Shown here one piece after another: positions 4,166 through 46,979 of a DNA stretch of 58,356 nt. The translations under genes and the position numbers were made by a program. Origin of the DNA: a virus; the IMG/VR virus record IMGVR_UViG_3300029563_000007, positions 1 to 58,356 of that record. One strand, written 5' to 3'. Each line of letters begins with the position of its first letter. The first letter of the stretch is position 1. The notes under the pieces are model-generated. The model saw only the letters and a program-made list of their open reading frames with translations, did no database searches and was not told the origin of the DNA.

Positions 4166-4169
4166 ACAA

Positions 4170-4210
4170 TTACCGACTACAGATTGATTGTAGCTGCTGA
4201 CCTTAGAAAG
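4170..4210 (+). repeat. hairpin-containing direct repeat, copy 1 (upstream of 4249 gene)
   Basis: TTACCGACTACAGATTGATTGTAGCTGCTGACC closely matches TTGCCGGCTACAGATTGGTTGTAGTCGCTACC at 4643. Confidence 0.6.
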
Positions 4211-4248
4211 CTAAAGGCTGATAAAACATATAAAAGGAGATAGAACCT

Positions 4249-4635: not shown

Positions 4636-4642
4636 TAAAAAT

Positions 4643-4683
4643 ATTGCCGGCTACAGATTGGTTGTAGTCGCTACCCTAAAACA
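4643..4683 (+). repeat. hairpin-containing direct repeat, copy 2 (downstream of 4249 gene)
   Basis: GGCTACA-GATTGGT-TGTAGTC stem-loop; see copy 1. Confidence 0.6.
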
Positions 4684-4720
4684 GTTATAGGCAGAGGTCT
4701 ATAAGCACCTTTGCTGAAAA

Positions 4721-6463: not shown

Positions 6464-6469
6464 TTCACT

Positions 6470-6892
6470 ATGACAACTAAGGATTATCTGAATCAGATAA
6501 GTTATTACAACAAGATAATTGATAATAAATTGATAGAAATAACACAGTATAAAGAATTATCATACAGCATATCAGCAGTTGTTAATGAAGAAAGAGTCCT
6601 GTCATCATCAGATCCGGACAAAATAGGCTGTGGATATGTCAGACTTGAACAAATGGAAGAAAGCCTTGATAAACTCATAGACAAATACATTGATGTAAAA
6701 AACAAAATAATAGAGCAGATAGAACAGATAAACAACGAAGATTATTACACAGTATTGTTTCTAAGATATGTCAGAAAGTTTACATTTGAAAAAATTGCAA
6801 ATGAAACAGACTGGTGTTGGCGACAGGTACACAGGATACACGCTAAAGCATTACAAGCCTTTGAAGATAAATATGGAAATGAATATTTATAA
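6470..6892 (+). CDS. sigma-70 region-4-like / ArpU-RinA-type late transcriptional regulator
   Basis: 140 aa; C-terminus YYTVLFLRYVRKFTFEKIANETDWCWRQVHRIHAKALQAFEDKY looks like sigma region 4 HTH. Confidence 0.5.
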   Translation: MTTKDYLNQISYYNKIIDNKLIEITQYKELSYSISAVVNEERVLSSSDPDKIGCGYVRLEQMEESLDKLIDKYIDVKNKIIEQIEQINNEDYYTVLFLRYVRKFTFEKIANETDWCWRQVHRIHAKALQAFEDKYGNEYL

Positions 6893-15980: not shown

Positions 15981-16348
15981 TCTGGGAAGAATACTTTGTT
16001 TTATCCAGTTCACTAGGCGTTAGTTATTCAGACTTTCTTAAAATGACACCTAAAAAGCTATGGGCTGTTGTAGAGGGTAAGAAACTTGAAAGGCAACGAA
16101 TGGATTCAGATATATGGCTTGCGATAGGTAGTTACATACTCCCAGCAATCAAGATAGGTGTTAGAAGTGGTGCTTGGGGTAAAGGCGAGCTTGAATACCC
16201 AGACAAGCCTATTTATAGAGATATTAACAAAAAAGAGAACAGCAAAGATGAAATACAAAGAAAGAGAGAAGAGTTTGTTTTGAATATGAAAATACGAAAA
16301 GCAAACTGGGATTTAACACACCCTAAAAATGATAAGCCGGAGGTATGA
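15956..16348 (+). CDS. -1 frame extension of the tail chaperone (GT-like fusion product)
   Basis: -1 frame is open from 15845 across the G stop (15978-80) to 16348; A-rich run AAGAAAAAG at 15954-62; track lists only 16043..16348. Confidence 0.55.
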   Translation, partial: EKADFHKIIWEEYFVLSSSLGVSYSDFLKMTPKKLWAVVEGKKLERQRMDSDIWLAIGSYILPAIKIGVRSGAWGKGELEYPDKPIYRDINKKENSKDEIQRKREEFVLNMKIRKANWDLTHPKNDKPEV

Positions 16349-19300
16349 GCGTGGAATTAGATTCATTAGAAGTCAAAATTACCGGTACTGCCACTAAAGC
16401 TATCAATTCTGTTGATAAACTGATAAATCAGCTTACAAGGCTGTCAACATCACTTGCGACTGTAAATGGTTCATCATTAAGCAGTCTTGCGAGCGGTGTT
16501 AGTCAGTTAGGTTCTGCTATGCAGAATATGAACGCAGGGACAGCAGATTTTACCCGACTTGCTAAGAACATCACAAAGATAGGTTCTGTTGATTCGGTTG
16601 CACTAACTAACACAGCTACATCACTTCAAGCTGTCACAAAGGCAGTTGCAAGCATATCAGCTATTCCGCAAAATGCAACACAGGTCACAGAATTTGCAAA
16701 GTCACTTGGTAAGCTAGGCAGTAAGAGTATAGAAAATGCCGTTGTAAACATTCCAAAGCTAGGCAATGCTTTAAATGGCTTAATGACAACGCTATCAAGA
16801 GCACCAACAGTAAGTCAGAATGTTATTCAAATGACTAACGCATTGGCTAATCTTGCTAGTCAAGGTAGCAAGGTGGGTACTTCTTCAAACTCACTTCAAA
16901 AGTCACTGTATGGCGTTTCTACGAGCGTCAGGACAGCGACTAAGAGCAGTTGGAACTTGGCAAGTGCAATAGGTAAGTTTTATGCCACTTATTTTATGGT
17001 AATTCGTGGCAGTAAGAAACTTATAGAAGCCATCAAGTCAACAACAGATTACATTGAAGCGTTCAACTATCAAGCGGTTGCGTTTGGTAAGATTGGTTCA
17101 GAGTGGGATAAAGATTACGAAAAGTACGGATATGATAACGCAACAGCATATGCAGAGAGCTTCCAAAGCAGAGTAAACGATACTCTCGGAAAGCTGTCTG
17201 GTTTAAAAGTTAATGTTCAAGGTGGCTTGCTTGAAGAAAGTGGAGCAAAGAACTTAGGACTTAACATACAAGAGATAACACAGTATGCTTCGCAGTTAGC
17301 TTCTGTCACTAACTCATTAGGACAGACAGGCGAAGCGACAACGGCAATAACAAAGTCAATGACAATGCTTGCAGGCGATATAAGCTCACTTTTTAACGTG
17401 GACTATTCAACAGTAGCACAGAACTTACAAAGCGGTTTAATCGGACAATCGAGGGCATTGTACAAGTATGGTATTGATATTACCAATGCTACATTAGCGA
17501 CGTATGCTTACAACTTAGGCATTTCTAAGTCGGTGTCTGAAATGACACAGATGGAAAAACAACAGTTAAGAGTGTTGGCAATATTAGACCAGAGTAAAGT
17601 ATCTTGGGGCGATTTAGCCAATACGATTAACAGTCCATCAAATATGTTACGACAGTTCAGCAACAATATGAAAGAGGTAGGAATGGTAGCAGGACAGCTA
17701 TTTATTCCAATTCTTTCAAAGGTTATGCCAATAGTAAACGGAGTAGCTATTGCAATCAAAAGATTATTAGTCAGCCTCGCTTCTTTAATGGGCGTTAAGA
17801 TTGACTTTGAGAGCTTCGGACAAAGTGGCTATAAAGACACATCAGACGGCTTAGAAGATATTTCAGATGGCTACCAAGATGTAGCTGATTCAGCTAAGAA
17901 AGCTACATTATCCCTTATGGGATTTGATGAAATAAATAAATTACAGGACGATACAAGCTCAAGCAAGGGTTCAAGTGGCGGTGGCGGTAGCACTATTGAT
18001 TTGACAGACGATATTGCTAAGGCGGCGGCAGAATATGAAGCGGCGTGGAATAAAGCGTTTGCCAATATGGAAAATTCGGCAGTTGCCTGGGCTGACAGAA
18101 TAGAGAAAACACTCGAACCTGTTAAACAGATTTTTAAAGATTTTGCAGTTGGTGATTTCTTTAAGGCGGGGCAAGATACATCTAACCTAGTGGCAGGAAT
18201 TTTTGATTGGTTTGCAAAAGCTATAGATGATGTTCCGTGGTTTAAAATCGGTCAGAAAATGGGAGATTTCCTTGCAGGCATTAATTGGACTAAGGTGTTT
18301 AAATCGGCGGCTAAAGTGCTTGTACAAGGCTTAAAAGCGGCTATTGAATTATACTTAGGTATGCTATCTAAAGCACCTATAGAAACACTTCTTATATCGC
18401 TTGTGGCAGTCCCTAAAGTACTTAAGGCGATAGGCGGTTCAGCAGTTGTAGCTAGTATAGTAAAAACGTACAAGACACTTGATAAATTTGCAACAACAGT
18501 AGCGGCGGCAACAGGCGCACTTAATGGAAATAAAGCGGCGGCTTCGGCACTAACATTTATGTACCCAAAGGCGGCTAAAACTGTAACTGATGTTAATAAA
18601 ACCTTTAATGCCCTTAAAACATCTTTAAATGACAATGGCTTTTTCGCTACATTTAATGAGGGGATTGAAACTATTAGAGGCAAAATGTCAGCATTGCAGA
18701 AAAGTGCAATAGGCGTTATAGGTGTATTTGCAGAGTTTTCGCTTGTTAAGAGCGGCTTTTATGAATTGGCGGTAGGAAGTGATAACCTTGTAGTTTCTAT
18801 TGCTAAAATAGCAGGCGGCGTAGGCGTAGCAACGGCGGCGTTAAAACTCATAGGCTTATCAAACCCATTCACAGCATTAATAGTGGGTGCTACTGGCTTA
18901 ATATCGTCAATAGTGGGTATCTCACAAGCTGTAAAAGAAGCAGAATTTAATAGTATGTTTACAGCATTGCAAGATACTGGAACTGTCACAATGAAAGAAT
19001 TAGGCGATGTAGCCAAAGACTCTTTTGGAAAAATAACAGATGGTATAACTGAAACCACAGACAAACTTAAAAATATATCAGAAGCAAAAGAAAATCTTGA
19101 AGAAACAACAGATAATGTAAATCTTTTAAAAACAGCGGTTGAAGATGGAGCATACACGACTAATGAAAAAATGCCGGAAATTATAGAACAATTCCAAAAC
19201 TTATTAAGTGAATCTAAAAATGTATTCAATGATGAATATGATGTTATCGTTGGTAATGTTGTAGGTGCTTGGAAAGATATTCTTGAAGCGCAAGGCGTTG

Positions 19301-20943
19301 CAATTCCAGAGTATGTGGCACAATTAGCAAGTTTACGCGACAAAGGAAATGAATCGTTTACAAGTATGAGTTCAGATTTAGAAACACTTATACAGCAGTT
19401 TAATGATGGGAAAATATCAGAAGAAGAGTTCTTAAATGCGGCTACGCCTTTAATAGATAAAATATCTTCTATTAATAGTGACAAGTCGGTTGATAATGCG
19501 ACACTTGCTATTCAAGGATTTGGCGGCGCATTAGATATATCACAGTATATGACAGAATCCGGACTTGATGTTCAAAGATTTAGTGAGGCTGTAAATGAAG
19601 TTGTAACAGCGGCACAAAACGGAAAAGATAACCTATCCACATTGGGAACGGAATCGTCACAAGCTATAACGGATATGAGAGATAGGCTTACAGCTTTAGG
19701 AATAGATGCAAGTCAATTTGATTGGTCAAGTTTATATGGTGCTAGTGATACGCAAGTACAACAAGGCACAGAGAGAATAGACGCGGCATATATGCAATAT
19801 GCTAATCAAGTACAGTATAACTTGCTCAATCAACTTCCATCAGTAGTTGAAGAAGCAACAAAAGACTATGAAAACCTAAACCCAATAGCTAAAATATTCA
19901 CAACAAAAGAAAACTATATTAAAAGTGTTATTGAGAAATGGCGTAAAAGCACATTAGACCCAGCACTTGATTCTGTTAAAGATGGCTTTAATCAGTTAGG
20001 AATAGACGGAAGCGTGTACGCTGATGAAGCGGCAGACAAGCTCACAACATCGCTATTTGATAGTATTAGAGTTTATTCCAATGTTGGTGTTAACAACACA
20101 AAGCCTAAACTTAAGGAAGATTGGCAAGAAATGCTTGATTCTGCTTTAAATGAAGCAGGAGAAGCAGTAGACGTAGAGGGCTATGGAAGAAATACAGTAG
20201 ATGGCTTTGTTAACGGAATTGTTGATAATGTTAATAAAAGCAACAATGCTGTAAGAGATTGGATGGATGAATTAGATAGAAATATTCACGATAGTGCAAT
20301 GAATTTTGGTTCACCATCAAGGCGTGCGGAAGAATACGGAAGATGGGTTGTTGAGGGTTTTAACAATGGTTTATCTGACAATTTAAGTAGCACATATAGC
20401 GCGATTGATGATTACGTTAACAATGTTAAATCGAGCTTTGATGGCATATATGATTCATTATGGGATATAGGTCATTATGCAGGCAGAGGTTTCTATGATG
20501 GCTTAGAAAGTATGGAAAACAGTATTTTTAGCGAAGCTAGATACATCGCAGATAACGTATCTGATACAATAAGAGATGCCTTAGACATTCATAGTCCATC
20601 AAGAGTTATGAAACAGATAGGTGAATACACGATAGAGGGCTTCAAACAAGGTATGGAGCTTAATTACAAACCTGTTGAGGTTTCTTTAAGCGACTTTACT
20701 AGCGATATTATTCAAAGCACAAAAGCAAGTAAATTTAATGCAAATACTAGCATACCTACAATGCCACAAATTAATATGGATAATAGCGCCACAACAGAAA
20801 CTAATATGTTATTAAGGCAACTAATATACGCTGTTGAAAATGGAAGAACAATAGAAATTGATGGACAAGAGATATTCAGAGTTACACAAAAGCAAGCAAA
20901 TATGTACACAGCAATGACTGGGTTACCTGCATATAATATATAA
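16345..20943 (+). CDS. tape measure protein
   Basis: 1532 aa, helical/Ala-Ser-rich with hydrophobic central segments, canonical position. Confidence 0.9.
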   Translation: MSVELDSLEVKITGTATKAINSVDKLINQLTRLSTSLATVNGSSLSSLASGVSQLGSAMQNMNAGTADFTRLAKNITKIGSVDSVALTNTATSLQAVTKAVASISAIPQNATQVTEFAKSLGKLGSKSIENAVVNIPKLGNALNGLMTTLSRAPTVSQNVIQMTNALANLASQGSKVGTSSNSLQKSLYGVSTSVRTATKSSWNLASAIGKFYATYFMVIRGSKKLIEAIKSTTDYIEAFNYQAVAFGKIGSEWDKDYEKYGYDNATAYAESFQSRVNDTLGKLSGLKVNVQGGLLEESGAKNLGLNIQEITQYASQLASVTNSLGQTGEATTAITKSMTMLAGDISSLFNVDYSTVAQNLQSGLIGQSRALYKYGIDITNATLATYAYNLGISKSVSEMTQMEKQQLRVLAILDQSKVSWGDLANTINSPSNMLRQFSNNMKEVGMVAGQLFIPILSKVMPIVNGVAIAIKRLLVSLASLMGVKIDFESFGQSGYKDTSDGLEDISDGYQDVADSAKKATLSLMGFDEINKLQDDTSSSKGSSGGGGSTIDLTDDIAKAAAEYEAAWNKAFANMENSAVAWADRIEKTLEPVKQIFKDFAVGDFFKAGQDTSNLVAGIFDWFAKAIDDVPWFKIGQKMGDFLAGINWTKVFKSAAKVLVQGLKAAIELYLGMLSKAPIETLLISLVAVPKVLKAIGGSAVVASIVKTYKTLDKFATTVAAATGALNGNKAAASALTFMYPKAAKTVTDVNKTFNALKTSLNDNGFFATFNEGIETIRGKMSALQKSAIGVIGVFAEFSLVKSGFYELAVGSDNLVVSIAKIAGGVGVATAALKLIGLSNPFTALIVGATGLISSIVGISQAVKEAEFNSMFTALQDTGTVTMKELGDVAKDSFGKITDGITETTDKLKNISEAKENLEETTDNVNLLKTAVEDGAYTTNEKMPEIIEQFQNLLSESKNVFNDEYDVIVGNVVGAWKDILEAQGVAIPEYVAQLASLRDKGNESFTSMSSDLETLIQQFNDGKISEEEFLNAATPLIDKISSINSDKSVDNATLAIQGFGGALDISQYMTESGLDVQRFSEAVNEVVTAAQNGKDNLSTLGTESSQAITDMRDRLTALGIDASQFDWSSLYGASDTQVQQGTERIDAAYMQYANQVQYNLLNQLPSVVEEATKDYENLNPIAKIFTTKENYIKSVIEKWRKSTLDPALDSVKDGFNQLGIDGSVYADEAADKLTTSLFDSIRVYSNVGVNNTKPKLKEDWQEMLDSALNEAGEAVDVEGYGRNTVDGFVNGIVDNVNKSNNAVRDWMDELDRNIHDSAMNFGSPSRRAEEYGRWVVEGFNNGLSDNLSSTYSAIDDYVNNVKSSFDGIYDSLWDIGHYAGRGFYDGLESMENSIFSEARYIADNVSDTIRDALDIHSPSRVMKQIGEYTIEGFKQGMELNYKPVEVSLSDFTSDIIQSTKASKFNANTSIPTMPQINMDNSATTETNMLLRQLIYAVENGRTIEIDGQEIFRVTQKQANMYTAMTGLPAYNI

Positions 20944-22367: not shown

Positions 22368-22571
22368 TTGAAAGGAGTGATTATTATTAGTCCAGCAGGA
22401 AGACCACATAAGGAAAACCCTAGAAATGTTAATCTTAATATCAGAATAACAAAAGATGAAGCTAATCGTATTCAGAAATGTGCTGATGAATTGAAATTAA
22501 CAAGAACCGACACCATTATGAAAGGTATAGGGTTAGTAGAAAAAGAACTTAAAGACAACAAAAAAGAGTAG
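22368..22571 (+). CDS. ribbon-helix-helix (Arc/Mnt/CopG-like) regulator
   Basis: ...GRPHKENPRNVNLNIRITKDEANRIQKCADELKLTRTDTIMKGI fits an RHH beta-strand plus two helices. Start unclear: TTG 22368 lacks an SD, and SD AAGGAG 22372-77 is followed only by in-frame GTG/ATT codons. Confidence 0.55.
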   Translation: MKGVIIISPAGRPHKENPRNVNLNIRITKDEANRIQKCADELKLTRTDTIMKGIGLVEKELKDNKKE

Positions 22572-22688
22572 CAACAAGTCGGTCAAAACTTTTAGTTGCT
22601 ACTCAAACCACCAATCCGAAAGGAATTGATAAATCTATCATATCAGTTTCTTTCGGAAAATTCAAGAATATTTTCGGAGGAAAAACAA

Positions 22689-22892
22689 ATGAGTAATGTA
22701 GAAATCGTAACAAATATTGACATAGCGTCAGAAATTGCACACGCAACAGTAACAGAAGTTTTAGCAAATATGGAAAACGAAAGAGTTTCATATGTTCTTA
22801 TGGGAGTTTTGCAGCAGATAGAAACCATTCAGGACAATGTTAATAATTTTGATTTAAAGGGACAGGACAAGTCTGCAAAGGAAGTGGCATAA
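22689..22892 (+). CDS. hypothetical small protein
   Basis: SD GGAGG then ATG 22689 (MSNVEIVTNIDIASEIAH...). Confidence 0.5.
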   Translation: MSNVEIVTNIDIASEIAHATVTEVLANMENERVSYVLMGVLQQIETIQDNVNNFDLKGQDKSAKEVA

Positions 22893-22981
22893 TATTATTG
22901 CGTGAGGCATTGTGGGCATATACTCCCACTACGCAATAAGTTCTGTTTTGAGCAAATGATAAATTTGTAGGAGGTAAAATA

Positions 22982-23743
22982 ATGAGTTATAATAATCCAA
23001 CTACAAAAGATGACACTCACAATGAGATTAAGGCACCAATGAACACTAAGAATATTTGCGGCGTAGACTGCTATGAGCAGAATGGCGTTGCTTACTTAAG
23101 ATTGGAAAATGTTGCTAGAGGACTTGGGTTTACCACAACTCAAGTGATTAATGGTAAGGAATATGTAAATATTCGCTGGAACGTTGTAAAACAATATCTT
23201 AATGATATTGGCTTTTTGCAGGAAGTTGCAAAAGACGATTTTATCCCAGAAAACATCTTCTACCGCCTAGCAATGAAAGCCAAAAATGAAACAGCAGAGA
23301 AATTTCAAGCATTAGTAGCTGATGAGATTATTCCGTCAATTCGCAAGAATGGAATATATGCTACCGATAATGTTATTGATGAAATACTGAATAATCCAGA
23401 CTTTGGAATAGAATTATTAACAAAGTTAAAAAAAGAAAGGCAAGCAAGAGTTGAAGCAGAAAGAAAGAACGCTATCTTAACACACGTCAATAAAACATAT
23501 ACAATGACGGAGATTGCTAAAGAGCTGAACTTAAATTCTGCTATTCAACTTAACAAGTTGCTTGCTGATAGAAAAATTCAGTACAATGTCAATGGAACTT
23601 GGGTTCTTTACTCACCATACAGCAGTATGGGATATGAGGAAATTAAACAAGAAATTCTTGACAGTGGTAAAGTAATCTATCATAGACGAATTACCCAACT
23701 TGGAAGAGAATTTATACTGCAATTATTCAATAATGTTGCATAA
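22982..23743 (+). CDS. antirepressor (Bro-N-like N-domain plus KilA-C/ANT-like C-domain)
   Basis: 253 aa; ...LENVARGLGFT..., ETAEKFQALVADEIIPSIRKNGIY, TMTEIAKELNLNSAIQLNKLLADRKIQ. Confidence 0.7.
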   Translation: MSYNNPTTKDDTHNEIKAPMNTKNICGVDCYEQNGVAYLRLENVARGLGFTTTQVINGKEYVNIRWNVVKQYLNDIGFLQEVAKDDFIPENIFYRLAMKAKNETAEKFQALVADEIIPSIRKNGIYATDNVIDEILNNPDFGIELLTKLKKERQARVEAERKNAILTHVNKTYTMTEIAKELNLNSAIQLNKLLADRKIQYNVNGTWVLYSPYSSMGYEEIKQEILDSGKVIYHRRITQLGREFILQLFNNVA

Positions 23744-23970
23744 GTTCTCTTGTGAGATATAATAGCTCAAACAGAAAGAAAATTCAATAGCTGTAAGAAA
23801 TTTACAGCTATAAAAAATCAGAACAAGTTGAATAGACCTGTTCTGATTAGCACATATGAGTACATATAAGTTGCTCACGTCAATAATAACAAATAAATAG
23901 CAAAATGACAAGGACATTTCACTTAATTGTGAGGTGTCCTTTTTGTGTGCTTAGGAAGTGAGGTTTTACT

Positions 23971-24405
23971 ATGAATTTTATACAATACATAAAGCAAGCG
24001 TGGAAAGCTGGCACTAGCGGCGGCACTCCATTAAGTCCAGATAGACTTAACCATATGGAAGATGGAATTAAGAGTAATAATGATATGATAAGTGAACTAA
24101 ACAGCAATATAGCTAATAGTGACATTGAGGGAATATTTAATTACCTAGGTCTTGAATTAATCATATACCACAAATTGGGCATATGTTACCTGCATTCCAG
24201 CGGCAGATTAACTCAAGCATTTCCAAAAGAATGGACCACAATTGGTGAAATAAGCAATATAAATTACAAAGGTTATGGACACTTAGCCGCTAATACTAGT
24301 GGAAAAATAATAAAATTTGCATATATAAATGGAACTCTAAGTGCATATGCACCAAGTTCAACAAATGCGATTGAATATGTACAAGACAGTTGCGTACTTA
24401 TCTGA
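23971..24405 (+). CDS. small tail-fibre-tip / receptor-binding-like protein, expressed variant
   Basis: SD GGAAGTGAGG; N-terminus MNFIQYIKQAWKAGTSGGTPLSPDRLNHMEDGIKSNNDMISELNSN carries the TPL..xLNHMEDGI motif common at fibre N-termini. Confidence 0.55.
   Translation: MNFIQYIKQAWKAGTSGGTPLSPDRLNHMEDGIKSNNDMISELNSNIANSDIEGIFNYLGLELIIYHKLGICYLHSSGRLTQAFPKEWTTIGEISNINYKGYGHLAANTSGKIIKFAYINGTLSAYAPSSTNAIEYVQDSCVLI
24029..24108 (+). repeat. left arm of an 80-bp inverted repeat
   Basis: 71/80 identical to the reverse complement of 24730-24809; perfect 20-bp core AGACTTAACCATATGGAAGA. Confidence 0.85.
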
Positions 24406-24462
24406 ATTAACTATTTACCAATTTTTAATTATTAAACTTTAGGGTAATCAGAAAAAAATAAA

Positions 24463-24783
24463 TTATAAAGCTGTACACAATAAAATTTCCACATAGCCAT
24501 TAAAGTATGTGTTACTACCTGCCCACCCACCAACTTGGCATATATGTCCATCTGATATACCAACCATTGTGTAAGTAATACCAGCATTTCTTCCTAAGTG
24601 TTGCCCACATATACCTATTGCTTTATAGCCGGTAGGTAGCGTGAATTCCTTTTCTATTAGGAACGGCTTGTTAGCTTCAATTACTGCATTATCGTAACTA
24701 ACCTTGATTACTTTAAATAAATTATAAGAATTGCTGTTTAGCTTGCTTATCATATCGTTATTATTCTTAATTCCGTCTTCCAT
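24463..24783 (-). CDS. promoterless alternative C-terminal cassette of the 23971 protein
   Basis: Minus-strand frame stays open upstream of its ATG through the repeat (…SISPDRLNHMEDGIKNNNDMISKLNSN…); no SD before the ATG; C-terminal 89 aa unrelated to variant 1. Confidence 0.5.
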   Translation of the reverse strand: MEDGIKNNNDMISKLNSNSYNLFKVIKVSYDNAVIEANKPFLIEKEFTLPTGYKAIGICGQHLGRNAGITYTMVGISDGHICQVGGWAGSNTYFNGYVEILLCTAL

Positions 24784-24809
24784 ATGGTTAAGTCTGTCTG
24801 GGCTTATTG
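24730..24809 (-). repeat. right arm of the 80-bp inverted repeat
   Basis: See 24029-24108; 5 of 9 differences are synonymous in the shared reading frame. Confidence 0.85.
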
Positions 24810-24838
24810 AAGTAAATATATAGAAAAGAGGTGATTGA

Positions 24839-25210
24839 ATGATAAGCGCTGTAATTATCGAGGGAGTAACATTCCCAGTAGCATATAACGGCTACACATA
24901 CAGTAGAAATAAGATATGGTCTAAAAACACAGGCAGGAACGACTATGGCGAAATGGTAGGCACAATCGTAGCTATCAAAGACAAAGTAGAACTGCAATTA
25001 CCGCCACTTACAGGCGAACAGGCATTGTTACTTGATAATGTGATTAGCGACATAGATAACCCATTCCCAACAGCACAAGTCCTGTTCTTAGGCGGTCAAC
25101 AAAAGGAAATGACAATATACACAGGAGATGTGACATATCCGTATCTCACAAGAGCGAAGAATGAGGACGGATTAATAGTCGGAGCGAAACTAAGCTTAAT
25201 TCAGAAATAA
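24839..25210 (+). CDS. distal-tail region protein
   Basis: 123 aa, SD AGAGGTG; position upstream of the large tail-tip gene. Confidence 0.4.
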   Translation: MISAVIIEGVTFPVAYNGYTYSRNKIWSKNTGRNDYGEMVGTIVAIKDKVELQLPPLTGEQALLLDNVISDIDNPFPTAQVLFLGGQQKEMTIYTGDVTYPYLTRAKNEDGLIVGAKLSLIQK

Positions 25211-25221
25211 GGAGATTAACT

Positions 25222-25548
25222 ATGAAAATAACAGGAAATGAAGTTTTAGCACATTATGAAGCACTTGCAAGTGTAGCACAGCTTAAAATGGGTGGCAGAT
25301 TAGCAGTTGCCATTATGTCTAACATTAAGATGTTAGAGCCACACTTTAAGGCAGTCGTGGAAACGATAGAAAAGATACGCGAGGAAAATAAAGATAACAA
25401 CGATAAGATAAAATCAGAACTTGAAGAACTAGGAGAACAGGAAATAGAAGTATCTGAATACACAAAAGTTGATATAAGCGCATTTGATAGTTGTGAAGCC
25501 ATTGAGCCAGCTAACATTATCGCACTTAGCTTTATGATTAACGATTAA
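25222..25548 (+). CDS. tail-module hypothetical protein
   Basis: 108 aa, SD AAGGAG. Confidence 0.4.
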   Translation: MKITGNEVLAHYEALASVAQLKMGGRLAVAIMSNIKMLEPHFKAVVETIEKIREENKDNNDKIKSELEELGEQEIEVSEYTKVDISAFDSCEAIEPANIIALSFMIND

Positions 25549-25573
25549 TCAGCAGAAAGGAGCAATCCAATAA

Positions 25574-28500
25574 ATGAAAAATATTAATTGGGGTGCGGAT
25601 TTCAATTTGCTGTATGCAAGATATTACAGCAAATATTTAGTTGACGGAAAAGAATACAATCAGACACTTAATGAGTTTAAGTACAGCAACATAATCAATC
25701 CGAACAATAGCATTTCCATAGGTAACACTTGCAGTAGTAGTGTTACCTTTTCTATTTATAATCCAGAAATCACGCTTGAAAATAAGGATATAACTATTTT
25801 TGAGGGCGTTAAGGGCGATAGCGGCATTGAGTATGTACAGATAGGCATATTTACTGTAATTAAAGAAGAAAGCAATGGCGAATACACTAAGTACACAGCT
25901 TATGACAAGATGTACAAAGCTGAAAAAGGTTATTTTACTAAATTAACTTATCCTAGTACGGATAAGGCTATTTTAGAAGAAATCTGTACAAAGTTAGGCA
26001 TACAGTTAGCAACTAGCATAACAAACACACATACAATTACAGATAAGCCACAAGGTTATACAATGCGTGAAATGATTGGTTATATGGCTATGCTACAAGG
26101 TGGAAATGCGGCTATTAATTCTGACGGAAACCTTGAAATAAAGTGGTACAAAGATAGCGGTTATGTGCTTGACGGACATCAATACTATCAGCAAGGGGTT
26201 ACTTTTACCACTAGCAAAGATTTTACGATAAGAAAGCTGACTTGTAACAATACAAAGTCTGGTGATAGCAAAACAAGTGAGATAACTGCCGGCGACGGAA
26301 CAACAGGACTTAGCTTTGCTAATCCATTTATGACACAAGCTAACTTAAATGAGATTTATAACAAGATAGGCGGCTTTCAGTTTAGACCGCTTACAGTTAA
26401 GTTTTTAGGTGATTGGCGATTAGAGGTAGGCGACATTATAACTGTTAATAAGGGCGGCGTTGATTACAAAGTACCTATAATGCAGATTACGCACGAATGT
26501 GACGGTGGTTTAATGGACACAGTTACATCTATCGGACAATCTGACACAGAAAACAGCAATATTGCTAGTGGTCCGATAACAAAGCAAATGGAACGATACT
26601 ACGCTGATTTAGTCTTAATCAACAAGGCAGTTATTGAAAATGCTTATATGACTAATGCCAATATTGAGAATTTAAAGGCACATCAAGCATATATCGACCA
26701 ACTAAAAGCCAATAAGATTGAAGCTGTCACAGCAGATATTGTTAATTTGACGGCAAATAAAGCTACGATTAATGAAGCTAATATCGCTAAGTTGCAAGCA
26801 GATTATGCACAGATAGGCGTGTTAAATGCTGATGTAGCAGATATTAAGACCTTAATGTTTGGTTCAGCGACAGGTAAAAGCTTAACAACAGAATTCGCTA
26901 ATGCAGTTGTAAGTGTTATTGGCGATGCACAGATAAAATCTGCTATGATTGATAGTATAGCCGCAGATAAGATTACAAGTGGGAAGATTTATACAAACCT
27001 TGTTGAAATTCTAAGCGAAAGCGGAAATCTTGATATAGCTGACAATACGATACAGATAAAAGATGATAACAAGGTTGCAAGAGTTCAAATAGGTAAAGAC
27101 GCTAATTCGGACTACAATATGTATGTCTGGGATAAAGCTGGCAATCTTATGTTTGATGCCTTAGGACTTACTGAAAAAGGTGTTACGAGGAAAGTTGTTC
27201 GTGATGATGTTGTTCAAGATAATGCTAATATCAATGCAAGCAAGCTGGATATTGAAACACTATTTAATGTTATCAATAACGATAACACCCATACACTTAA
27301 GAGCAATAAAATTTATCTGGACAACGAGGGGCAGACACTTAATGTCATTATGCAAGCTATAACAAGTGGTGCTGGCAAAGATTATACTCAATGGGGCGGT
27401 ATGATGAAAGTTGCTAGTGATTTTATCACTAACAAGTTGTGGTGGACTGAAAATGTTGACAACGAAAGCATTAAGACTAAGTTTTCTACTGTTAATCAGA
27501 AACTAGATAGCTACGAAATCACGTTATCCGACTTATACCAACAAACGAACGATAATTTTATGGTGTATACAGTTACAGAAACACCTAACAAAGATAATTA
27601 CCCAGCTATTGATTGGTTCATACCTATTTATCCGTCAGATGATTTGTTTCCAAGCGATAATCTTACTTGGACTTATAGCAATGATGAATACGCAAAATAT
27701 CACGGGGCAATAGCATACAACGAAACAGCTCATAAAACTTGGCGTTGGGCTAAAGATGGTAAAGGTAATTGGGGTTGGAAAGAGGTATCTAACACACAAT
27801 TAGCCTATATGCTTAATCAGAACGCTAGTCTTAAGATTAATCTTAATAGCATATCAACAGAATTAACACAGACAAAGAAAAATCTGACAGATAATTATAG
27901 TACAACAACTACTATGATTAACAAAATTACGCAGGAAATTAATGATAATGGTTCAAGTATTAGTTTGGCACTTAGTGGAACTTACGCTAAGTCAAGCGAT
28001 TTAGAAAGTTATGCAACTAAAACAAGCCTTGATTTATATATCAAAAAAGACCCTAAAACAGGCGAGCTTAAGAGTGCTATCGAAGCTATTGCAGATACAA
28101 TAAATATTACTGCAAGGGGTGGGCTTAATTTAAGTGGCAACAGGTTTACATTAAACAGCACGAACACCAGCATTACAGCAGACGGAACTATAACTTGTAG
28201 CAATCTGATTGCCAACGGCGGAAACGTTGGCGGCTGGAAAGTGTCTAAAGATTCAATAAGTACAATATTTAAGCAGAATAATGACTTATTCAGAATTGCA
28301 TTACAAATACCTGGTGATATTACACCATATGTTTTTTCGGTTTTTCACGGAACTGCAGATGAGGGATACAGCAAAAGTCCTAATTTTTATATAAGTCAAA
28401 CTGGTAAACTATATGCAACTAACGCACAAATTACAGGAAGCGGCTATTTTTCGTCTGGCACGATTGGAGGCTGGGACATCAGCAAGTCTTCTATCTATAA

Positions 28501-29539
28501 AGATTACGGCAAATATAGAACTTATATACAGGCACCCGCTAATTCCGAAGCTTGGACATTCTCTTGCCAAGAAGAAAGAGATGGGGCATATTATGGTAAT
28601 TGGTACGTTCGTGCGGATGGATATATGTATGCTTCTAAAGGTCAAATTGGCAATTTCTCAATTGATAATGGTATATTGTCGACATATCAAAATAATGGAA
28701 TTAAAGGAATGTCGATAGACCAAAATTACATTAAATTCTATTCTTGGGTCGACGATTACGAAAATTATGTAGGTTCGATAACTACAACAAGATACTATAC
28801 TAGCAATAATGAAGTAAGAAGAGCTTTAGTGCTCAATGCAGATTATGGAGATGTTGTCGGAATAAATTGTACCAAAGAGAAAACAGAAAATACGGAATAC
28901 GAATTCGTTATAAGAATAAACAACGATTTAAACAAATCATTAGAGTTTTTTTCGCCCAATATTTCGATGAATGGCGGTTACCAAGACAATATTAAAAAAC
29001 CAACGACACTTACAGTATATTGCTATAATCCAAATTCGGGAAAAGACACACAAAATGTCAGAATTACAAATACAGAGGACAGACACTACGAGAACTGCGA
29101 ACTGTCAGTATATGGAAGTACATACATAGGATATGATTTGCGATGTTTCGGGTCAATTTATGGAACAATTGCTTCTGATTCAGACGAGAACGTAAAAAAA
29201 GATGTTCATTTATTGAATTCAGAAGACTCTTCTGAATTTATCTACAATTTAAAACCTTGCGAATTTAAAATGATTAACGGTACTTCTAATCGCTACCATC
29301 ACGGATTTATTGCACAGCAGGTTAAAGAAACTATGAAAGATGACTGGGGATTATTTATCGATAAAAAGATTAATAATGATAACTACGAAACACAAGTCTC
29401 AGACGAAAACGGAAATACAACTAAAGAGCTAACAGCAAGATACGCATTACGCTATGATGAATTAATAGCGGATATAGTTGCGACTGTACAATCGCAGAAT
29501 ATGCGTATTAAAAAATTGGAAAAGCAATTAAGCAATTAA
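25574..29539 (+). CDS. tail tip/fibre protein with C-terminal peptidase S74 intramolecular chaperone domain
   Basis: 1321 aa; N-terminal minor-structural/Tal-like region, coiled-coil repeats, C-terminus SDENVKKDV...NRYHHGFIAQQVKE...LRYDELIADIV typical of the S74 auto-cleaving chaperone. Confidence 0.7.
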   Translation: MKNINWGADFNLLYARYYSKYLVDGKEYNQTLNEFKYSNIINPNNSISIGNTCSSSVTFSIYNPEITLENKDITIFEGVKGDSGIEYVQIGIFTVIKEESNGEYTKYTAYDKMYKAEKGYFTKLTYPSTDKAILEEICTKLGIQLATSITNTHTITDKPQGYTMREMIGYMAMLQGGNAAINSDGNLEIKWYKDSGYVLDGHQYYQQGVTFTTSKDFTIRKLTCNNTKSGDSKTSEITAGDGTTGLSFANPFMTQANLNEIYNKIGGFQFRPLTVKFLGDWRLEVGDIITVNKGGVDYKVPIMQITHECDGGLMDTVTSIGQSDTENSNIASGPITKQMERYYADLVLINKAVIENAYMTNANIENLKAHQAYIDQLKANKIEAVTADIVNLTANKATINEANIAKLQADYAQIGVLNADVADIKTLMFGSATGKSLTTEFANAVVSVIGDAQIKSAMIDSIAADKITSGKIYTNLVEILSESGNLDIADNTIQIKDDNKVARVQIGKDANSDYNMYVWDKAGNLMFDALGLTEKGVTRKVVRDDVVQDNANINASKLDIETLFNVINNDNTHTLKSNKIYLDNEGQTLNVIMQAITSGAGKDYTQWGGMMKVASDFITNKLWWTENVDNESIKTKFSTVNQKLDSYEITLSDLYQQTNDNFMVYTVTETPNKDNYPAIDWFIPIYPSDDLFPSDNLTWTYSNDEYAKYHGAIAYNETAHKTWRWAKDGKGNWGWKEVSNTQLAYMLNQNASLKINLNSISTELTQTKKNLTDNYSTTTTMINKITQEINDNGSSISLALSGTYAKSSDLESYATKTSLDLYIKKDPKTGELKSAIEAIADTINITARGGLNLSGNRFTLNSTNTSITADGTITCSNLIANGGNVGGWKVSKDSISTIFKQNNDLFRIALQIPGDITPYVFSVFHGTADEGYSKSPNFYISQTGKLYATNAQITGSGYFSSGTIGGWDISKSSIYKDYGKYRTYIQAPANSEAWTFSCQEERDGAYYGNWYVRADGYMYASKGQIGNFSIDNGILSTYQNNGIKGMSIDQNYIKFYSWVDDYENYVGSITTTRYYTSNNEVRRALVLNADYGDVVGINCTKEKTENTEYEFVIRINNDLNKSLEFFSPNISMNGGYQDNIKKPTTLTVYCYNPNSGKDTQNVRITNTEDRHYENCELSVYGSTYIGYDLRCFGSIYGTIASDSDENVKKDVHLLNSEDSSEFIYNLKPCEFKMINGTSNRYHHGFIAQQVKETMKDDWGLFIDKKINNDNYETQVSDENGNTTKELTARYALRYDELIADIVATVQSQNMRIKKLEKQLSN

Positions 29540-34539: not shown

Positions 34540-34621
34540 TATGTACGAGAAGAAAGATATGGTGACAGTTATAGACGGCGGCAAAGTCGTAGGATTCGTT
34601 AAGAGAGGAGAAAAGGAATGA
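34493..34621 (+). CDS. hypothetical 42-aa protein
   Basis: MKQVNEKVITVQDCIDMYEKKDMVTVIDGGKVVGFVKRGEKE; stop overlaps the next start (ATGA). Confidence 0.3.
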   Translation: MKQVNEKVITVQDCIDMYEKKDMVTVIDGGKVVGFVKRGEKE

Positions 34622-35259
34622 TAACAAATAATAAAGCCTATATGATAGGTAAGATTGCTAAGAAACCAGTATTTTCACACGAGGTTTATGGTGAGGGATT
34701 TTATATTTTTCACATAGAAGCTCCAAGAAAAAGCGGCAATGTAGATACGCTTCCGGTCGTTGTATCTGAAAGACTTGTTGACATTAACAGACTAGATGTA
34801 GACAGAACTGTAGTAATTAACGGACAGATTAGGTCATACAATCAACACATAGATGGCACACATAGCCATCTGATACTTAGCATATTCGCTAGGGAGATTG
34901 ATATATTAGAGGATGTTGAAATTCCACTGGATACGAACAATTCAATTGAAATCGTAGGGCATTTATGCAAAGCACCTACATATAGAACAACACCGCAAGG
35001 CAGAGAGGTATGTGACATTATGATGGCTGTCAATAGAGCCTATGGTAAGTCAGATTACATACCTTGTATCGTATGGGGAAGAAATGCGAGATTTGCAGGT
35101 AGACTTGAAGCTGGGGAACATATTCAGATTCAGGGAAGATTCCAGAGCAGGGAATACGCTAAGAAGATAAGTGACAATGAAGTTGAAACAAGAACTGCTT
35201 ATGAAGTATCGGTAAGCAAGATTGATTATGCAGATGAGGGCGAAGCTAATGTGCAGTGA
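34618..35259 (+). CDS. tandem OB-fold SSB-like protein
   Basis: 213 aa; two SSB-like halves (MIGKIAKKPVFSHE...INGQIRSYN and IVGHLCKAPTYRTTPQGREVCDIMMAVNR...IQGRFQSREY). Confidence 0.5.
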   Translation: MITNNKAYMIGKIAKKPVFSHEVYGEGFYIFHIEAPRKSGNVDTLPVVVSERLVDINRLDVDRTVVINGQIRSYNQHIDGTHSHLILSIFAREIDILEDVEIPLDTNNSIEIVGHLCKAPTYRTTPQGREVCDIMMAVNRAYGKSDYIPCIVWGRNARFAGRLEAGEHIQIQGRFQSREYAKKISDNEVETRTAYEVSVSKIDYADEGEANVQ

Positions 35260-38055: not shown

Positions 38056-39123
38056 ATGGCAGAGAATACAGCAGTTGCGGAAAAGAAAGCGTTTACCACC
38101 TCATTAAGTGAGTGGAGTAATACAATGACAGGACTTATTATCAATGATTATAAGGCTGTTGGAATGGATATGGACGATTATGCAAAAGAGTGTGCTATGG
38201 AAGCAATGACAAGCATATTCAATCTTGTTAAGAGCGACCCTAAGATTGATATGAGAAATCTTGATACAAGCAATTTAAGGGGCATTGTCAAGCGTTGTGC
38301 AAGCCTTAAGTTAAATGCTAGTGCATACCCAAGAGAGTGCTATTTTCAGTTAAGGAATGTAAAAATAGGAGTTGACCCGCAGACAGGCAAGGATGTATGG
38401 CAGAAACAGGTTGAAATGGGAATCGAGGGTACAGGTTATGACTCTTTGCTTGCCAACTATGGAAAAGATGTTAAGCAGGTTTATCCGTACTGGGTAATTA
38501 AAGAGGGTGACAAGTACATACCACCTAAGCATAAAGGACTTACAGTTACAGAGCCGGAGTGGGAAGAAAGCGGATTATCTGATAAAGCGGTAAGAGTTGT
38601 ATATCCTGTTAAGCTGTTAGACGGAACAGTAACATATCTTTCTGCTGATAGAGATAGTGTTAAGGTAAATCTTTTAGCTCATGTTAAGCAAAACATAATG
38701 AATGAGACTTTTGGTATCTGTGAGGACAGATACCACGCAACACCAAAGCAGAAAGCAGAAATTAAGGCTAAGAAAGACGAGATACTTAATGCCTTAAGAG
38801 CGTGCAAGACAGTAGATGAAATGCTTGAATGTGAAATTGCAAGACCATTCATCAGCGGTGCTTGGCTTGATACGCCAGAGAGTATGATTCAGAGAAAAAT
38901 GTGCAACAACGCTACAAGGAAATACCCTAAGAACTATGACCCAATGGCACGACAGGCACAGGTTGAAATGGATGAGGTATATCAAGTTGCACAGGCTGAA
39001 ATTGCCGAAAATGCTAATACTGTTGAGTTCATAGAGAATACGGAAGATGTTGATACAACAGCCGCAGAAGCAACAGAAGAACAAACAGACAGCACATTGC
39101 CACCATTTATGCAGGCAGAATAG
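38056..39123 (+). CDS. RecT-family single-strand annealing protein (putative)
   Basis: 355 aa; context beside ATPase, MBL and SSB genes; C-terminal WLDTPESMIQRKMCNNATRKYPKNY resembles the RecT W..pe.M..K..r motif. Confidence 0.5.
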   Translation: MAENTAVAEKKAFTTSLSEWSNTMTGLIINDYKAVGMDMDDYAKECAMEAMTSIFNLVKSDPKIDMRNLDTSNLRGIVKRCASLKLNASAYPRECYFQLRNVKIGVDPQTGKDVWQKQVEMGIEGTGYDSLLANYGKDVKQVYPYWVIKEGDKYIPPKHKGLTVTEPEWEESGLSDKAVRVVYPVKLLDGTVTYLSADRDSVKVNLLAHVKQNIMNETFGICEDRYHATPKQKAEIKAKKDEILNALRACKTVDEMLECEIARPFISGAWLDTPESMIQRKMCNNATRKYPKNYDPMARQAQVEMDEVYQVAQAEIAENANTVEFIENTEDVDTTAAEATEEQTDSTLPPFMQAE

Positions 39124-39468: not shown

Positions 39469-40199
39469 ATGAAATTAAAATGCTTAGGCTCATCATCAGC
39501 CGGAAATTGCTATCTGCTAACTTCCAACAGTGAAGAAACGCTTATCCTTGATTGTGGAATACCGATTAGGAAAATCAAGAAAGGCTTAGATTGGAACATA
39601 AGGGGGATTACGGGTGTGATTATAAGTCACACCCACCTCTAGACCATAGCAAGTCAGTAAACGATTTTAAATCAATGGGAATACCGATACTTGCCCCATA
39701 TTTAGGCGATAGCTGTAAATCAATGAATATGGGCGAATTTACAGTGAAACCCTTTGATTTAACGACAATAGACGGAAATTGGACACATACCAATGCAGAC
39801 GGAACACCTTGCCCGATATATGGCTTTCTGATTACTCACCCGGAAATGGGGAGAATGCTTTACATAACCGATTGTGAGGTTGTCAAGTGGAGATTTAAAG
39901 ACATAAACAACATTCTCTTAGGCGTGAATTATGACAAGGATTTAATCGACAAGGACAATGCAGGCAAAGCTAATCACGTATTCAGAGGTCACTTAAGTAT
40001 TGATACAGCTTGCGATTTTGTTAAGGCAAATTATTCAGATAACTTGCAAAACGTCATAATGTGCCATTTATCAAGTGAAAATGCTGATAGAGATAGTTTT
40101 ATCGAGAAGATGAAAAAAGTTGCTTATGGGGCGAATGTAGATGTTGCAGAGCGCAACAAGGAATGGTTACTTGCTAATCCTAATGAGTGCCCGTTTTAG
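39469..40199 (+). pseudogene. MBL-fold metallo-hydrolase gene split by a frameshift inside the HxHxDH motif
   Basis: Frame A: MKLKCLGSSSAGNCYLL...GVIISHTHL then TAG 39640-42. Frame A-1 continues LDHSKSVNDFKSMGIP... to 40199. Junction CACCTCTAGACC contains a CT dinucleotide repeat. Confidence 0.7.
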
Positions 40200-40209
40200 A
40201 AAGGAGATA

Positions 40210-40722
40210 ATGACTATGAATTTCAAATGGAGTGAGGAGGAAGTCCTTTTATTAAAAGATAAATATTCTTGCTCAACAAATGATGAATTAATTGCCTTAT
40301 TTCCTAATAAAACATTTTTGGCAATCTATAAAAAAGCTTATTCGCTTAACTTAAAGAGAGATGAAGAAATTAAGTTTTTGAACAGGTCAAAGACTAAAAG
40401 TGGTAAAAATGCTAGTAATTGGAATGGCGGTGTTAGGAGAACAAGCAAAGGATATATACAAATATTAATGCCGGAACATAAAAGAGCAGATAAAGGCGGG
40501 TACGTTATGGAACATATCTTAGTTTATGAAAAAGCCACAGGAATAGAAGTGCCACGAAATTGTTGCATACATCATTTGAACGGGATAAAAAATGATAACA
40601 GAATTGAAAATTTATGTATGATGACAAATTCAGCACACACAATATATCATCATACAGGGCAAAAAAGAAGTGAAGAAACTAGAAAACGAATTTCAGAAAG
40701 CAAGAGGAAAAAATATGAATAA
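40210..40722 (+). CDS. HNH homing endonuclease
   Basis: ...CCIHHLNGIKNDNRIENLCMMTNSAHTIYHH (HNH core); start ATG 40210 or 40216. Confidence 0.8.
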   Translation: MTMNFKWSEEEVLLLKDKYSCSTNDELIALFPNKTFLAIYKKAYSLNLKRDEEIKFLNRSKTKSGKNASNWNGGVRRTSKGYIQILMPEHKRADKGGYVMEHILVYEKATGIEVPRNCCIHHLNGIKNDNRIENLCMMTNSAHTIYHHTGQKRSEETRKRISESKRKKYE

Positions 40723-41143
40723 AGTGATAATTTCGGGGAGAGTTGTTAGGGATGCTGATGTTAGATATTCACAGACAGCAAACGGAAGTATGGCGGTAGC
40801 AAGGTATACATTAGCTGTTGACAGAACTTTTAAGAAAGAGGGCGAACAGGCAGCAGACTTTATTAACTGTATTGCATTTGGCAAGAATGGAGAGTTTGCA
40901 GAGAAGTATTTACATCAGGGAACTAAGATTATCGTTGAGGGCAGATGGCAGACAGGCAACTACACTAACAAGGACGGACAGAAAGTCTACACTAATGATT
41001 GCGTTGTTGAAAGACACGAGTTCTGCGAAAGTCGTACTAATCAGCAGAGCAACAATAATGGAATTATGGGCGGTAATGCTAGTTCAGACAGTTTTATGTC
41101 AATTCCAGACAATGTAGCTGACGAGGGATTACCATTTAATTAA
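40715..41143 (+). CDS. ssb: single-stranded DNA-binding protein
   Basis: MNKVIISGRVVRDADVRYSQTANGSMAVARYTLAVDR... OB fold, Q/N/G-rich tail ending DEGLPFN. Confidence 0.9.
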   Translation: MNKVIISGRVVRDADVRYSQTANGSMAVARYTLAVDRTFKKEGEQAADFINCIAFGKNGEFAEKYLHQGTKIIVEGRWQTGNYTNKDGQKVYTNDCVVERHEFCESRTNQQSNNNGIMGGNASSDSFMSIPDNVADEGLPFN

Positions 41144-41742: not shown

Positions 41743-41921
41743 GATTGATTGATGCAGATAAACTAATTGAGGATATTCACAAAAGAAATTATATCGATAA
41801 GGCTTTATCTGAAATACTTGAAACTATCATTAATGAACAACCAACGGCTTTCAGTATGGCAGCTAAACCTATTGATAATTTTATAAATCCTTTTGAAGTA
41901 AAGGCAGGTGGTAATTCTTGA
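41739..41921 (+). CDS. hypothetical protein (MRLIDADKL family)
   Basis: 60 aa; tandem paralog of 41464. Confidence 0.4.
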   Translation: MRLIDADKLIEDIHKRNYIDKALSEILETIINEQPTAFSMAAKPIDNFINPFEVKAGGNS

Positions 41922-46897: not shown

Positions 46898-46915
46898 AGA
46901 TATATTGAAATATAT

Positions 46916-46959: not shown

Positions 46960-46979
46960 CAAAAGAAAGGAGCTTTTGA

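Follow-up and report, generated by a model that had tools for sequence, protein, structure and literature searches.

An invertible two-cassette locus for a putative receptor-binding protein in a prevalent clade of human-gut phages

Introduction

Host-range switching by DNA inversion is textbook material for phages Mu and P1. The Mu (G/Gin), P1 (C/Cin), and p15B (Min) systems each comprise an adjacent serine invertase, short crossover sites (34-bp repeats in Mu, with dyad-symmetric gix and cix sites of 26 bp), an enhancer, and a tail fiber assembly gene (U/U') within the invertible segment. A stretch of viral DNA of 58,356 nt, IMG/VR record IMGVR_UViG_3300029563_000007 (here called the window; all coordinates are window positions), contains a locus resembling these systems, in that a constant N-terminus lies outside the segment, two opposed C-termini lie inside it, repeats sit at the junction, and a flip swaps the tip of the protein. 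The locus codes for a putative receptor-binding protein (RBP) and has two C-terminal cassettes, of types designated T01 and T00, facing each other between inverted-repeat arms.

Three further types of system bear on the locus. Shufflons run by a tyrosine recombinase, such as Rci of R64, have three or more cassettes set apart by asymmetric repeats of 11 to 19 bp, next to an invertase that lacks an arm-binding domain. In Neisseria, pilE is varied by RecA-dependent gene conversion from many silent pilS loci. The RBPs of lactococcal P335 and 936 phages, such as TP901-1 BppL and p2 ORF18, are proteins of ∼160 to 260 amino acids (aa) with a conserved N-terminal attachment region, a helical neck, and a beta-sandwich head that is exchangeable and determines the host range; exchange of these heads is evolutionary or engineered and does not occur by inversion within a genome.

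Tail fiber inversion in Mu and P1 has been described (PMC6109161; Milman et al., PMC9881135). In the Rin shufflon of Bifidobacterium prophages, a constant portion (Rc) is joined by inversion to variable heads (Rv) of 95 to 100 aa (Mavrich et al. 2018, PMC6109161); it has three to five cassettes and rix sites that are asymmetric and 11 bp long, and an arm-less tyrosine invertase is encoded beside it (PMC6109161). At a locus of bifidophages 689b-1 and Bb423phi2, a comparison of the two genomes revealed an inversion of ∼500 bp at an 8-bp repeat, with the gene functions unknown (PMC6109161).

Here we show that loci of the same architecture occur in both orientations among related phages, and that both junctions expected from inversion are represented for the window's own cassette pair. 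The evidence supports the view that DNA inversion allows the phage to exchange its tip though it carries no dedicated invertase of its own. We somewhat favor the reading that the T01/T00 locus is a two-cassette RBP module of a temperate siphophage of Pseudoruminococcus, flipped by homologous recombination between the arms.

Organization of the locus

The anatomy of the locus was read from the sequence and from a repeat search. The two arms are 84 nt long, are complementary at 74 of 84 positions (88%), and are separated by 621 nt; the chance of such a match is ∼3e-23 (binomial, corrected for all placements in the window), and the next-longest inverted repeat in the 3-kb neighborhood is 21 nt. 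An original prediction, made from the sequence alone, had reported 71/80 identity between 24029-24108 and the reverse complement of 24730-24809, with five of the nine differences in this 80-nt span being synonymous; both values were reproduced, and the repeat reaches 4 nt further out. Within the arms is a core, AGACTTAACCATATGGAAGA, that is perfect over 20 bp and is the longest unbroken identity between the arms in this genome. It has no other perfect copy in the window, in which 0.02 matches are expected even with 3 mismatches permitted. The core and the palindrome CCATATGG, which encodes His-Met-Glu, were both found in the arms, as predicted. There is no third copy of the arm in the window or in 81 related loci. 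The elements of the locus are arranged as follows.

23910 to 23941, plus strand: terminator-like hairpin followed by a T-run, closing the antirepressor/moron block just upstream of the RBP gene
23958 to 23963, plus strand: Shine-Dalgarno (SD)-like GTGAGG, 7 nt before the ATG of open reading frame (ORF) A, outside the invertible segment; read directly from the sequence
23971 to 24024, plus strand: constant N-terminal coding part, 18 codons, MNFIQYIKQAWKAGTSGG; one copy per genome, always outside the repeat
24025 to 24108, plus strand: left arm, codons 19 to 46 of the RBP-like protein, TPLSPDRLNHMEDGIKSNNDMISELNSN; from the repeat search
24043 to 24062, plus strand: first copy of the perfect 20-bp core, by sequence match
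24109 to 24405, plus strand: cassette T01, a 98-aa C-terminal head domain and stop codon, fused to the constant N-terminus
24406 to 24462, no strand: 57-bp spacer between the two convergent stop codons, inverting along with the cassettes
24463 to 24729, minus strand: cassette T00, an 88-aa alternative head domain and stop codon, silent in this orientation
24730 to 24813, minus strand: right arm, TSISPDRLNHMEDGIKNNNDMISKLNSN, with no start codon or SD upstream on its strand
24776 to 24795, minus strand: second copy of the perfect 20-bp core

Both arms are coding and in frame, and the proposal that they specify the same peptide is borne out by 28 shared codons. After the shared ...LNSN the two reading frames part completely, into T01 on the plus strand and T00 on the minus strand; the complete divergence had been predicted, although the lengths given then, 99 and 89 aa, are each one residue too long. 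ORF A (23971-24405, plus strand, 144 aa) consists of the constant N-terminus and T01. The minus-strand frame, ORF B, is open upstream of the right arm but contains neither an SD nor any start codon ahead of the internal Met of MEDGIK; the SD is confined to the plus-strand gene, as originally noted. In the arrangement that we propose, the SD-bearing constant N-terminus (18 unique codons and the 28-codon arm) would join whichever head faces it, and recombination between the arms would flip the 621-bp segment and swap the head, with the other head remaining silent on the opposite strand.

Orientation in related phages

A scan of IMG/VR with the N-terminus identified 80 loci, or 81 with the window, and 49 of the 81 have the convergent two-arm architecture. 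Typing of the C-termini in all typed loci gave the following pairs.

T01 expressed, T00 silent: 41 loci
T03 expressed, T02 silent: 8 loci
T03 expressed, T05 silent: 5 loci
T03 expressed, T05 with a 65-aa in-frame deletion (T05del) silent: 3 loci
T03 expressed, T03 silent: 1 locus

T02 and T04 were also found as single-cassette loci.

Three pairs, T03/T05, T03/T05del, and T03'/T02, are seen in both orientations, as had been anticipated for related phages. A 53-kb Logan contig (L103) has T05 expressed and T03 silent, and was compared with L024 and L030; a 20-kb contig (L100) has T05del expressed and T03 silent, and was compared with L031 and L036. The lineage of protein P0114 also has T05 expressed and T03 silent, and is represented by at least 18 contigs, including scaffolds of 56.7 kb and 55.5 kb and MEGAHIT k141 contigs. 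L355 (56 kb, 102x coverage) has T02 expressed and T03' silent, with its protein present on 11 contigs, and was compared with L039, L033, and L040. In these mirror-image comparisons the flanks are collinear (88 to 99% identity), and the arms with the DNA between them, ∼610 to 790 nt, align in reverse (88 to 98%). The flipped T03/T05 and T03'/T02 forms stand on long, reliably assembled contigs (53 to 57 kb), and assembly ambiguity is excluded for these sister pairs because the arms share 26 identical nt in L103 (assembled at k=31) and 36 in L355, and because the 84-nt repeat is shorter than the k of 141 used for L337 and L340. Full-length T05 is found on at least 50 contigs in the large collection and its silent-length form on at least 139. 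The mirror-image pairs and the T05 counts therefore indicate that this clade has undergone repeated inversion between the arms. More distant relatives with N-termini that are 45 to 54% identical (L290 to L336) have no second inverted arm, and the two-cassette design is thus clade specific.

One related locus departs from the common spacing. In IMGVR_UViG_3300045988_072332 (L068, positions 4045-6574), the arms are 2.5 kb apart rather than ∼0.8 kb, with T03-like heads behind both and extra DNA inside the putative segment.

Orientation of the window's own pair

The orientation of the T01/T00 pair was evaluated from public assemblies, using contigs and protein look-ups. The 134-aa chimera predicted from the window's own arms, joining the constant N-terminus to T00, exists in the protein collection as P0105, with a variant, P0085; a search at the level of cluster representatives returned only the 106-aa silent ORF, and the 134-aa member came from the cluster listing. 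Two contigs, L013 (SRR27201073) and L014 (ERZ28637364), contain the left junction, in which the forward left flank is joined to reversed sequence (24813→24117 and 24813→24345, respectively) at 99.4 to 99.6% identity, and L265 (OJKY01024273.1) has the same inverted left junction. Two others, L018 (ERZ652233) and L019 (ERZ1309606), contain the right junction, with the 123-aa gene and right outer flank followed by the T01 cassette. Inverted T01/T00 junctions are thus present on five contigs from five samples, three left and two right, and both junctions of a whole-segment inversion are recovered for the window's own pair. The predicted fusion of the constant N-terminus to the alternative C-terminus is borne out by the chimeric proteins and by these five contigs, short as they are.

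Some candidates did not survive inspection. The 116-aa proteins P0090 and P0106 appeared to represent T01 in the silent position, but the contigs involved (L011, L012, and L015 to L017) proved to have the standard orientation, their gene calls being truncated or the contig beginning inside the arm. The 'TPIS' of L013 had suggested that the crossover lay at the outermost edge of the repeat, but this was rejected, as ORF A with TPIS is common in the standard orientation (P0087, 111 contigs).

Several observations weigh against frequent switching of this pair. All of the flipped T01/T00 contigs are short (0.66 to 3.4 kb), and the SPAdes coverage, known for two of them, is ∼1.9x in both. Some strains have arms that are identical over 66 to 80 nt, and the parental arms of several flipped contigs may be identical over more than k bases, such that misassembly or template switching is possible for any one contig. 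Long T01/T00 contigs are in the standard orientation in 10 of 10 cases in the first long-contig set, 31 of 31 in IMG/VR, and 8 of 9 in the metagenome scan. Protein look-ups place ORF A variants on ∼650 contigs and ORF B on ∼900, with hundreds in the standard orientation, and the overall balance of ∼5 flipped to ∼900 standard contigs corresponds to ∼99.5% T01-expressed. Flipping in this genome is at best rare.

The encoded protein

Residues 5 to 41 of ORF A match N-terminal sequences in two PHROG families, phrog_2012 (minor tail protein) and phrog_5711 (head fiber protein), and clade members are labelled 'receptor binding protein' in NCBI records. In the protein collection, the first ∼46 residues (MNFIQYIKQAWKAGTSGGTPLSPDRLNHMEDGIKNNNDMISELNNN) are near-invariant and are followed by ∼20 unrelated C-termini, with the break always exactly at the inner edge of the arm. 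Structure prediction of the C-terminal domains, which had been proposed as a check, was informative for one of them: T00 is predicted with confidence to be all-beta, with a beta-sandwich fold (predicted local distance difference test [pLDDT] score of 89), whereas a single-sequence AlphaFold model of ORF A is unusable (pLDDT 37). Distant homologues of T00 are C-terminal domains of other fiber-like proteins. These features suggest that ORF A codes for a small RBP with two alternative, probably beta-sandwich, heads of ∼90 to 100 aa. The fold search counts against this assignment, as no characterized RBP was matched significantly, with a best PDB match for T00 at E=0.2 and a best viral match, to an uncharacterized siphovirus protein, at E=5.5e-4; a sequence search of the PDB gave only a spurious match (E=0.74). 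An 840-aa protein, P0108, that matched T00 with E=1e-9 was rejected as a homologue; it is a tandem translation of sequencing-adapter-like repeats and a contaminant in the representative library.

Recombinases and the integration module

Pfam scans of 50 ORFs across the window identified no serine recombinase or invertase, no shufflon-type invertase, and no second tyrosine recombinase. This agrees with the original prediction, in which no serine invertase was seen and the visible recombinases were the tyrosine integrase and a RecT-like protein.

38056 to 39123, plus strand: RecT-family single-strand annealing protein, by profile match; a candidate helper of inversion
46499 to 48436, plus strand: prophage integration module, with Tn916-type Xis (46499-46897), tyrosine integrase (46980-48167), and attP repeats (48160-48436)

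The integrase lies 22 kb from the cassettes, has a Tn916-type N-terminal DNA-binding domain, and is paired with Xis beside attP at the prophage end. The attP region contains six or seven arm-type repeats (GTGTGTAGTA), found only at 48160-48436, and the att crossover is near 48275-48289 (...CCCCTTATGAACTTAA). Neither these repeats nor the att core are related to the inverted-repeat arms, and neither occurs near the cassettes. The att core and the core of the inverted-repeat arms have the 7-mer ACTTAAC in common, which is near chance level. With this near-chance 7-mer as the sole shared sequence and with arm-type repeats confined to attP, a role for the integrase as the invertase is not supported.

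Host genes adjoining the right end of the prophage encode a Phd/YoeB toxin-antitoxin pair and a polysaccharide synthase (L349 to L354). ERZ1764870 NODE_6 (301,673 nt) carries two copies of the integrase (L348 and L349) at a distance of 55 kb, with phage genes after one and host genes after the other, which suggests two related tandem prophages or a double lysogen.

Evolution of the arms and mode of exchange

The arms carry several signs of exchange with each other. Non-reciprocal patches are present in L001, in which the right arm is left-type over columns 28 to 82, and in L007 (columns 49 to 67); the left arms of L002 and L003 have the right-type base at column 28, and those of P0093 and P0088 have right-type residues. 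Lineage-specific synonymous variants are common to both arms of one genome, and arm identity is higher within genomes (69.8/75) than between them (67.8/75), a difference reached in 0 of 2,000 permutations, with the test weakened by kinship among the genomes. The palindrome CCATATGG is replaced by TCATATCG in flipped lineages (L100 and L337) and by AGGCTTAAT in L355, and no block longer than ∼11 nt is invariant across all arms. As read from the flipped contigs alone, the apparent exchange points differ (columns 17 to 22, 28 to 49, 67 to 79, and 82 to 95).

Homology-driven inversion is favored because of the mosaic patches, the concerted evolution of the arms, the non-conserved palindrome, the differing exchange points, and the lack of an invertase in the phage. 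General homologous recombination acting on the arms, by host RecA and/or phage RecT, would account for the exchange, at a rate set by the length of perfect arm identity, so that the 20 bp of the window's arms would give rare flipping. Pairs seen in both orientations have perfect runs of 26 to 70 nt (26 in L103, 36 in L355, 32 to 50 in L337 to L340, and 70 in L100 and L024), and window-type arms, with their 20-bp run, are almost never flipped, which is weakly suggestive of such a length dependence. Three considerations speak against this mechanism: 20 bp of perfect identity would make RecA-type recombination very inefficient in this genome, inversion and gene conversion could be separate processes, and a site-specific invertase acting in trans would give the same two products.

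The last of these is unlikely but is the main competitor. It holds that the locus is a programmed inverton run in trans, either by a host global invertase, like RecV of Clostridioides difficile or Mpi of Bacteroides fragilis, or by the Tn916-type integrase of the phage itself, using a secondary site in the arms, with the conversion patches arising as a by-product. Clean whole-segment inversions with both junctions in four cassette pairs would be expected of such an enzyme, as would the window arms' retention of a perfect 20-bp core while flanking synonymous sites differ; an invertase acting in trans has been proposed for a phage inversion locus with no flanking recombinase (PMC6109161), and the ACTTAAC match between att core and arm core, though near chance, points the same way. 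The variation of core and palindrome among flipped lineages, the differing exchange points, and the short maximum length of any invariant block argue against it, together with the lack of an invertase gene among the 50 scanned ORFs and the restriction of the integrase's arm-type repeats to attP, and dependence on a host enzyme for a phage host-range switch would be unusual.

Alternatively, the locus may not be a working switch at all, the second cassette being left from horizontal module exchange and kept since an inverted duplicate, unlike a direct one, cannot be deleted by recombination; inversions would then be rare accidents and T01 frozen in place. We consider this improbable, although several observations that weigh against a working switch are in its favor. 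A single cassette is present in 32 of the 81 loci, and the T01/T00 pair has an extreme bias, at ∼99.5% standard orientation. Silent copies are decaying: silent T03 has a C-terminal frameshift in the P0114 lineage (L337 to L343), the 65-aa in-frame deletion of T05 is found in L025, L031, L036, and L100 to L102, and the silent arm of L103 (4290-4324) carries a 9-nt deletion. In L100 to L102, moreover, T05del occupies the expressed position as an 80-aa protein that is probably defective. This decay argues against strong, universal selection for a working switch. Polymorphism is powerless to show purifying selection on T00, the ratio of nonsynonymous to synonymous substitution rates (dN/dS) being based on 2 variant sites in 112 copies. 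The whole module is near-clonal and recently spread. Against a mere leftover, T00 is intact in ∼900 contigs, the silent cassettes of one phage (T02 and T05) are the expressed heads of others, and conversion keeps the arms alike. At least four cassette pairs share the architecture, in each case convergent and with the arm preserved, and both orientations are common for T03/T05.

A further possibility, that no inversion takes place, is very improbable. ORF B would then be a separate minus-strand gene translated from its internal Met, and the flipped contigs would be chimeras that arose at the repeat in assembly or in the library. The short flipped T01/T00 contigs (∼1.9x in the two with known SPAdes coverage) and the ambiguity at short k of arms identical over 66 to 80 nt would fit, but ORF B lacks an SD and the 18 N-terminal residues that all full-length family members possess, the left and right junctions were each recovered independently, and flipped sister pairs are found on contigs that are long, of high coverage, or assembled at k141 and whose arms can be told apart at the k used.

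The invertible segment (24109-24729) is 99.9 to 100% identical in all 110 loci carrying it, and in the adjoining region (24839-26173, 110 loci) the 123-aa gene beside the segment averages 93.9% identity (minimum 89.8%) and the next genes ∼97%. From these identities, the two-head module appears to have spread recently among diverged phage backbones as a unit delimited by the arms. Tentatively, and with the case close to evenly balanced, the 28-codon neck may double as the 84-bp homology arm at which ordinary recombination, by host RecA or phage RecT, flips the head, with the rate of flipping tuned by conversion and the arms serving as portable junctions for horizontal spread of two-head modules. 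The two heads may confer different receptor or host specificities.

Genomic context

The window genome (∼58 kb) is that of a temperate siphophage of low G+C content with nearly all genes on the plus strand. The region upstream of the cassettes comprises the tape-measure gene (16345-20943), a pair of unknown genes, and an insertion carrying ribbon-helix-helix (RHH)-like and antirepressor genes (22982-23743). The region downstream is fixed.

24839 to 29539, plus strand: distal-tail genes downstream of the segment, unmoved when the segment flips

These code for a 123-aa protein (phrog_1194, weak DUF6711), a 108-aa protein (phrog_1401), and a 1,321-aa tail/adsorption protein carrying a Peptidase_S74 chaperone domain. 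A GH25 endolysin gene is also located downstream. The tail/adsorption protein (25574-29539) has at least three lengths (1,014, 1,127, and 1,320 to 1,321 aa; L003, L007, and L009), with Peptidase_S74 only in the longest, and constitutes a second, independent polymorphism of host-range type beside the cassettes.

The block at 22368-23743 is a moron-type insertion hotspot within the tail module. It is variable among strains (L001 to L010), coding for a Bro-N/ANT antirepressor, a Phage_pRha protein, or a 226-aa protein with a faint Rv1352 match, and terminator-like hairpins at 23787-23848 and 23910-23941 end the variable block. Three tRNA genes (Gln-TTG, Tyr-GTA, and Ser-GCT) are at 400-1013, between small-terminase-like and packaging/head genes. 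The early region contains two single-stranded DNA-binding protein (SSB) genes together with HNH and GIY-YIG endonuclease genes (34618-35259, 40670-41143, 40141-40722, and 41918-42508), which are probably homing-type insertions.

Index entries for the exact ORF A protein span 735 blocks of the protein collection and those for the integrase 1,220, with ORF A contigs of up to 0.2 to 1 Mb. The host named in NCBI records is Pseudoruminococcus massiliensis (Acutalibacteraceae, Clostridia). A megablast search of the 10-kb neighborhood against GenBank phages gave no match, and a scan of GTDB representative genomes gave no confirmed match.

Discussion

The locus described here belongs to a very prevalent clade of human-gut phages and constitutes an RBP-head module that is invertible although no invertase is encoded in cis. 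Host-range switching by inversion is barely documented in phages of Gram-positive hosts; in the limited library of literature searched, we found no report of an invertible RBP-head module in Clostridia phages. The prevalence of the clade makes orientation ratios, host links, and flip rates measurable from existing read archives. If no dedicated enzyme is needed, receptor bet-hedging would be attainable by inverted duplication of a conserved neck segment, and inverton-finding pipelines keyed to nearby recombinases would miss this class of element. The two-head modules also mark an exact in-frame junction for head swaps, after ...ELN(S/N)N, that is useful for engineering phages against Oscillospirales.

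The locus had been likened to the Mu G and P1 C segments and to shufflons. The likeness holds for the constant N-terminus and alternative C-termini, but probably not for site-specific chemistry, as the evidence points to homologous recombination. It also differs from Mu, P1, and p15B in having no invertase, 84-bp coding arms with gene conversion, small heads (88 to 98 aa), and a Gram-positive Clostridia host, and there is no tail fiber assembly gene in the segment, only a 57-bp spacer between the cassettes. With pilE/pilS it shares 5'-truncated, promoterless silent copies, a conserved segment in common with the expression locus, and non-reciprocal transfer, although here a single adjacent segment undergoes reciprocal inversion, and the arms are the only place where conversion is observed. 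No sequence match or significant fold match of the window RBP to lactococcal RBPs was found, but the general plan is similar to those of TP901-1 BppL and p2 ORF18, being that of a small protein with a conserved N-terminal part and an exchangeable, here predicted, beta-sandwich head.

The Rin shufflon is similar in belonging to siphophages of Gram-positive gut bacteria, in joining a constant RBP N-terminus to heads of ∼95 to 100 aa, and in being evidenced by prophages fixed in different orientations, but the module described here has two cassettes, 84-bp arms, no adjacent recombinase, and a constant part of 46 aa. The closest precedent is the 689b-1/Bb423phi2 locus, in which the 3' end of a structural gene and a small opposing gene are likewise inverted with no flanking recombinase. 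The locus described here differs from it in having an 84-bp conserved coding repeat and in being represented by hundreds of genomes and four cassette pairs.

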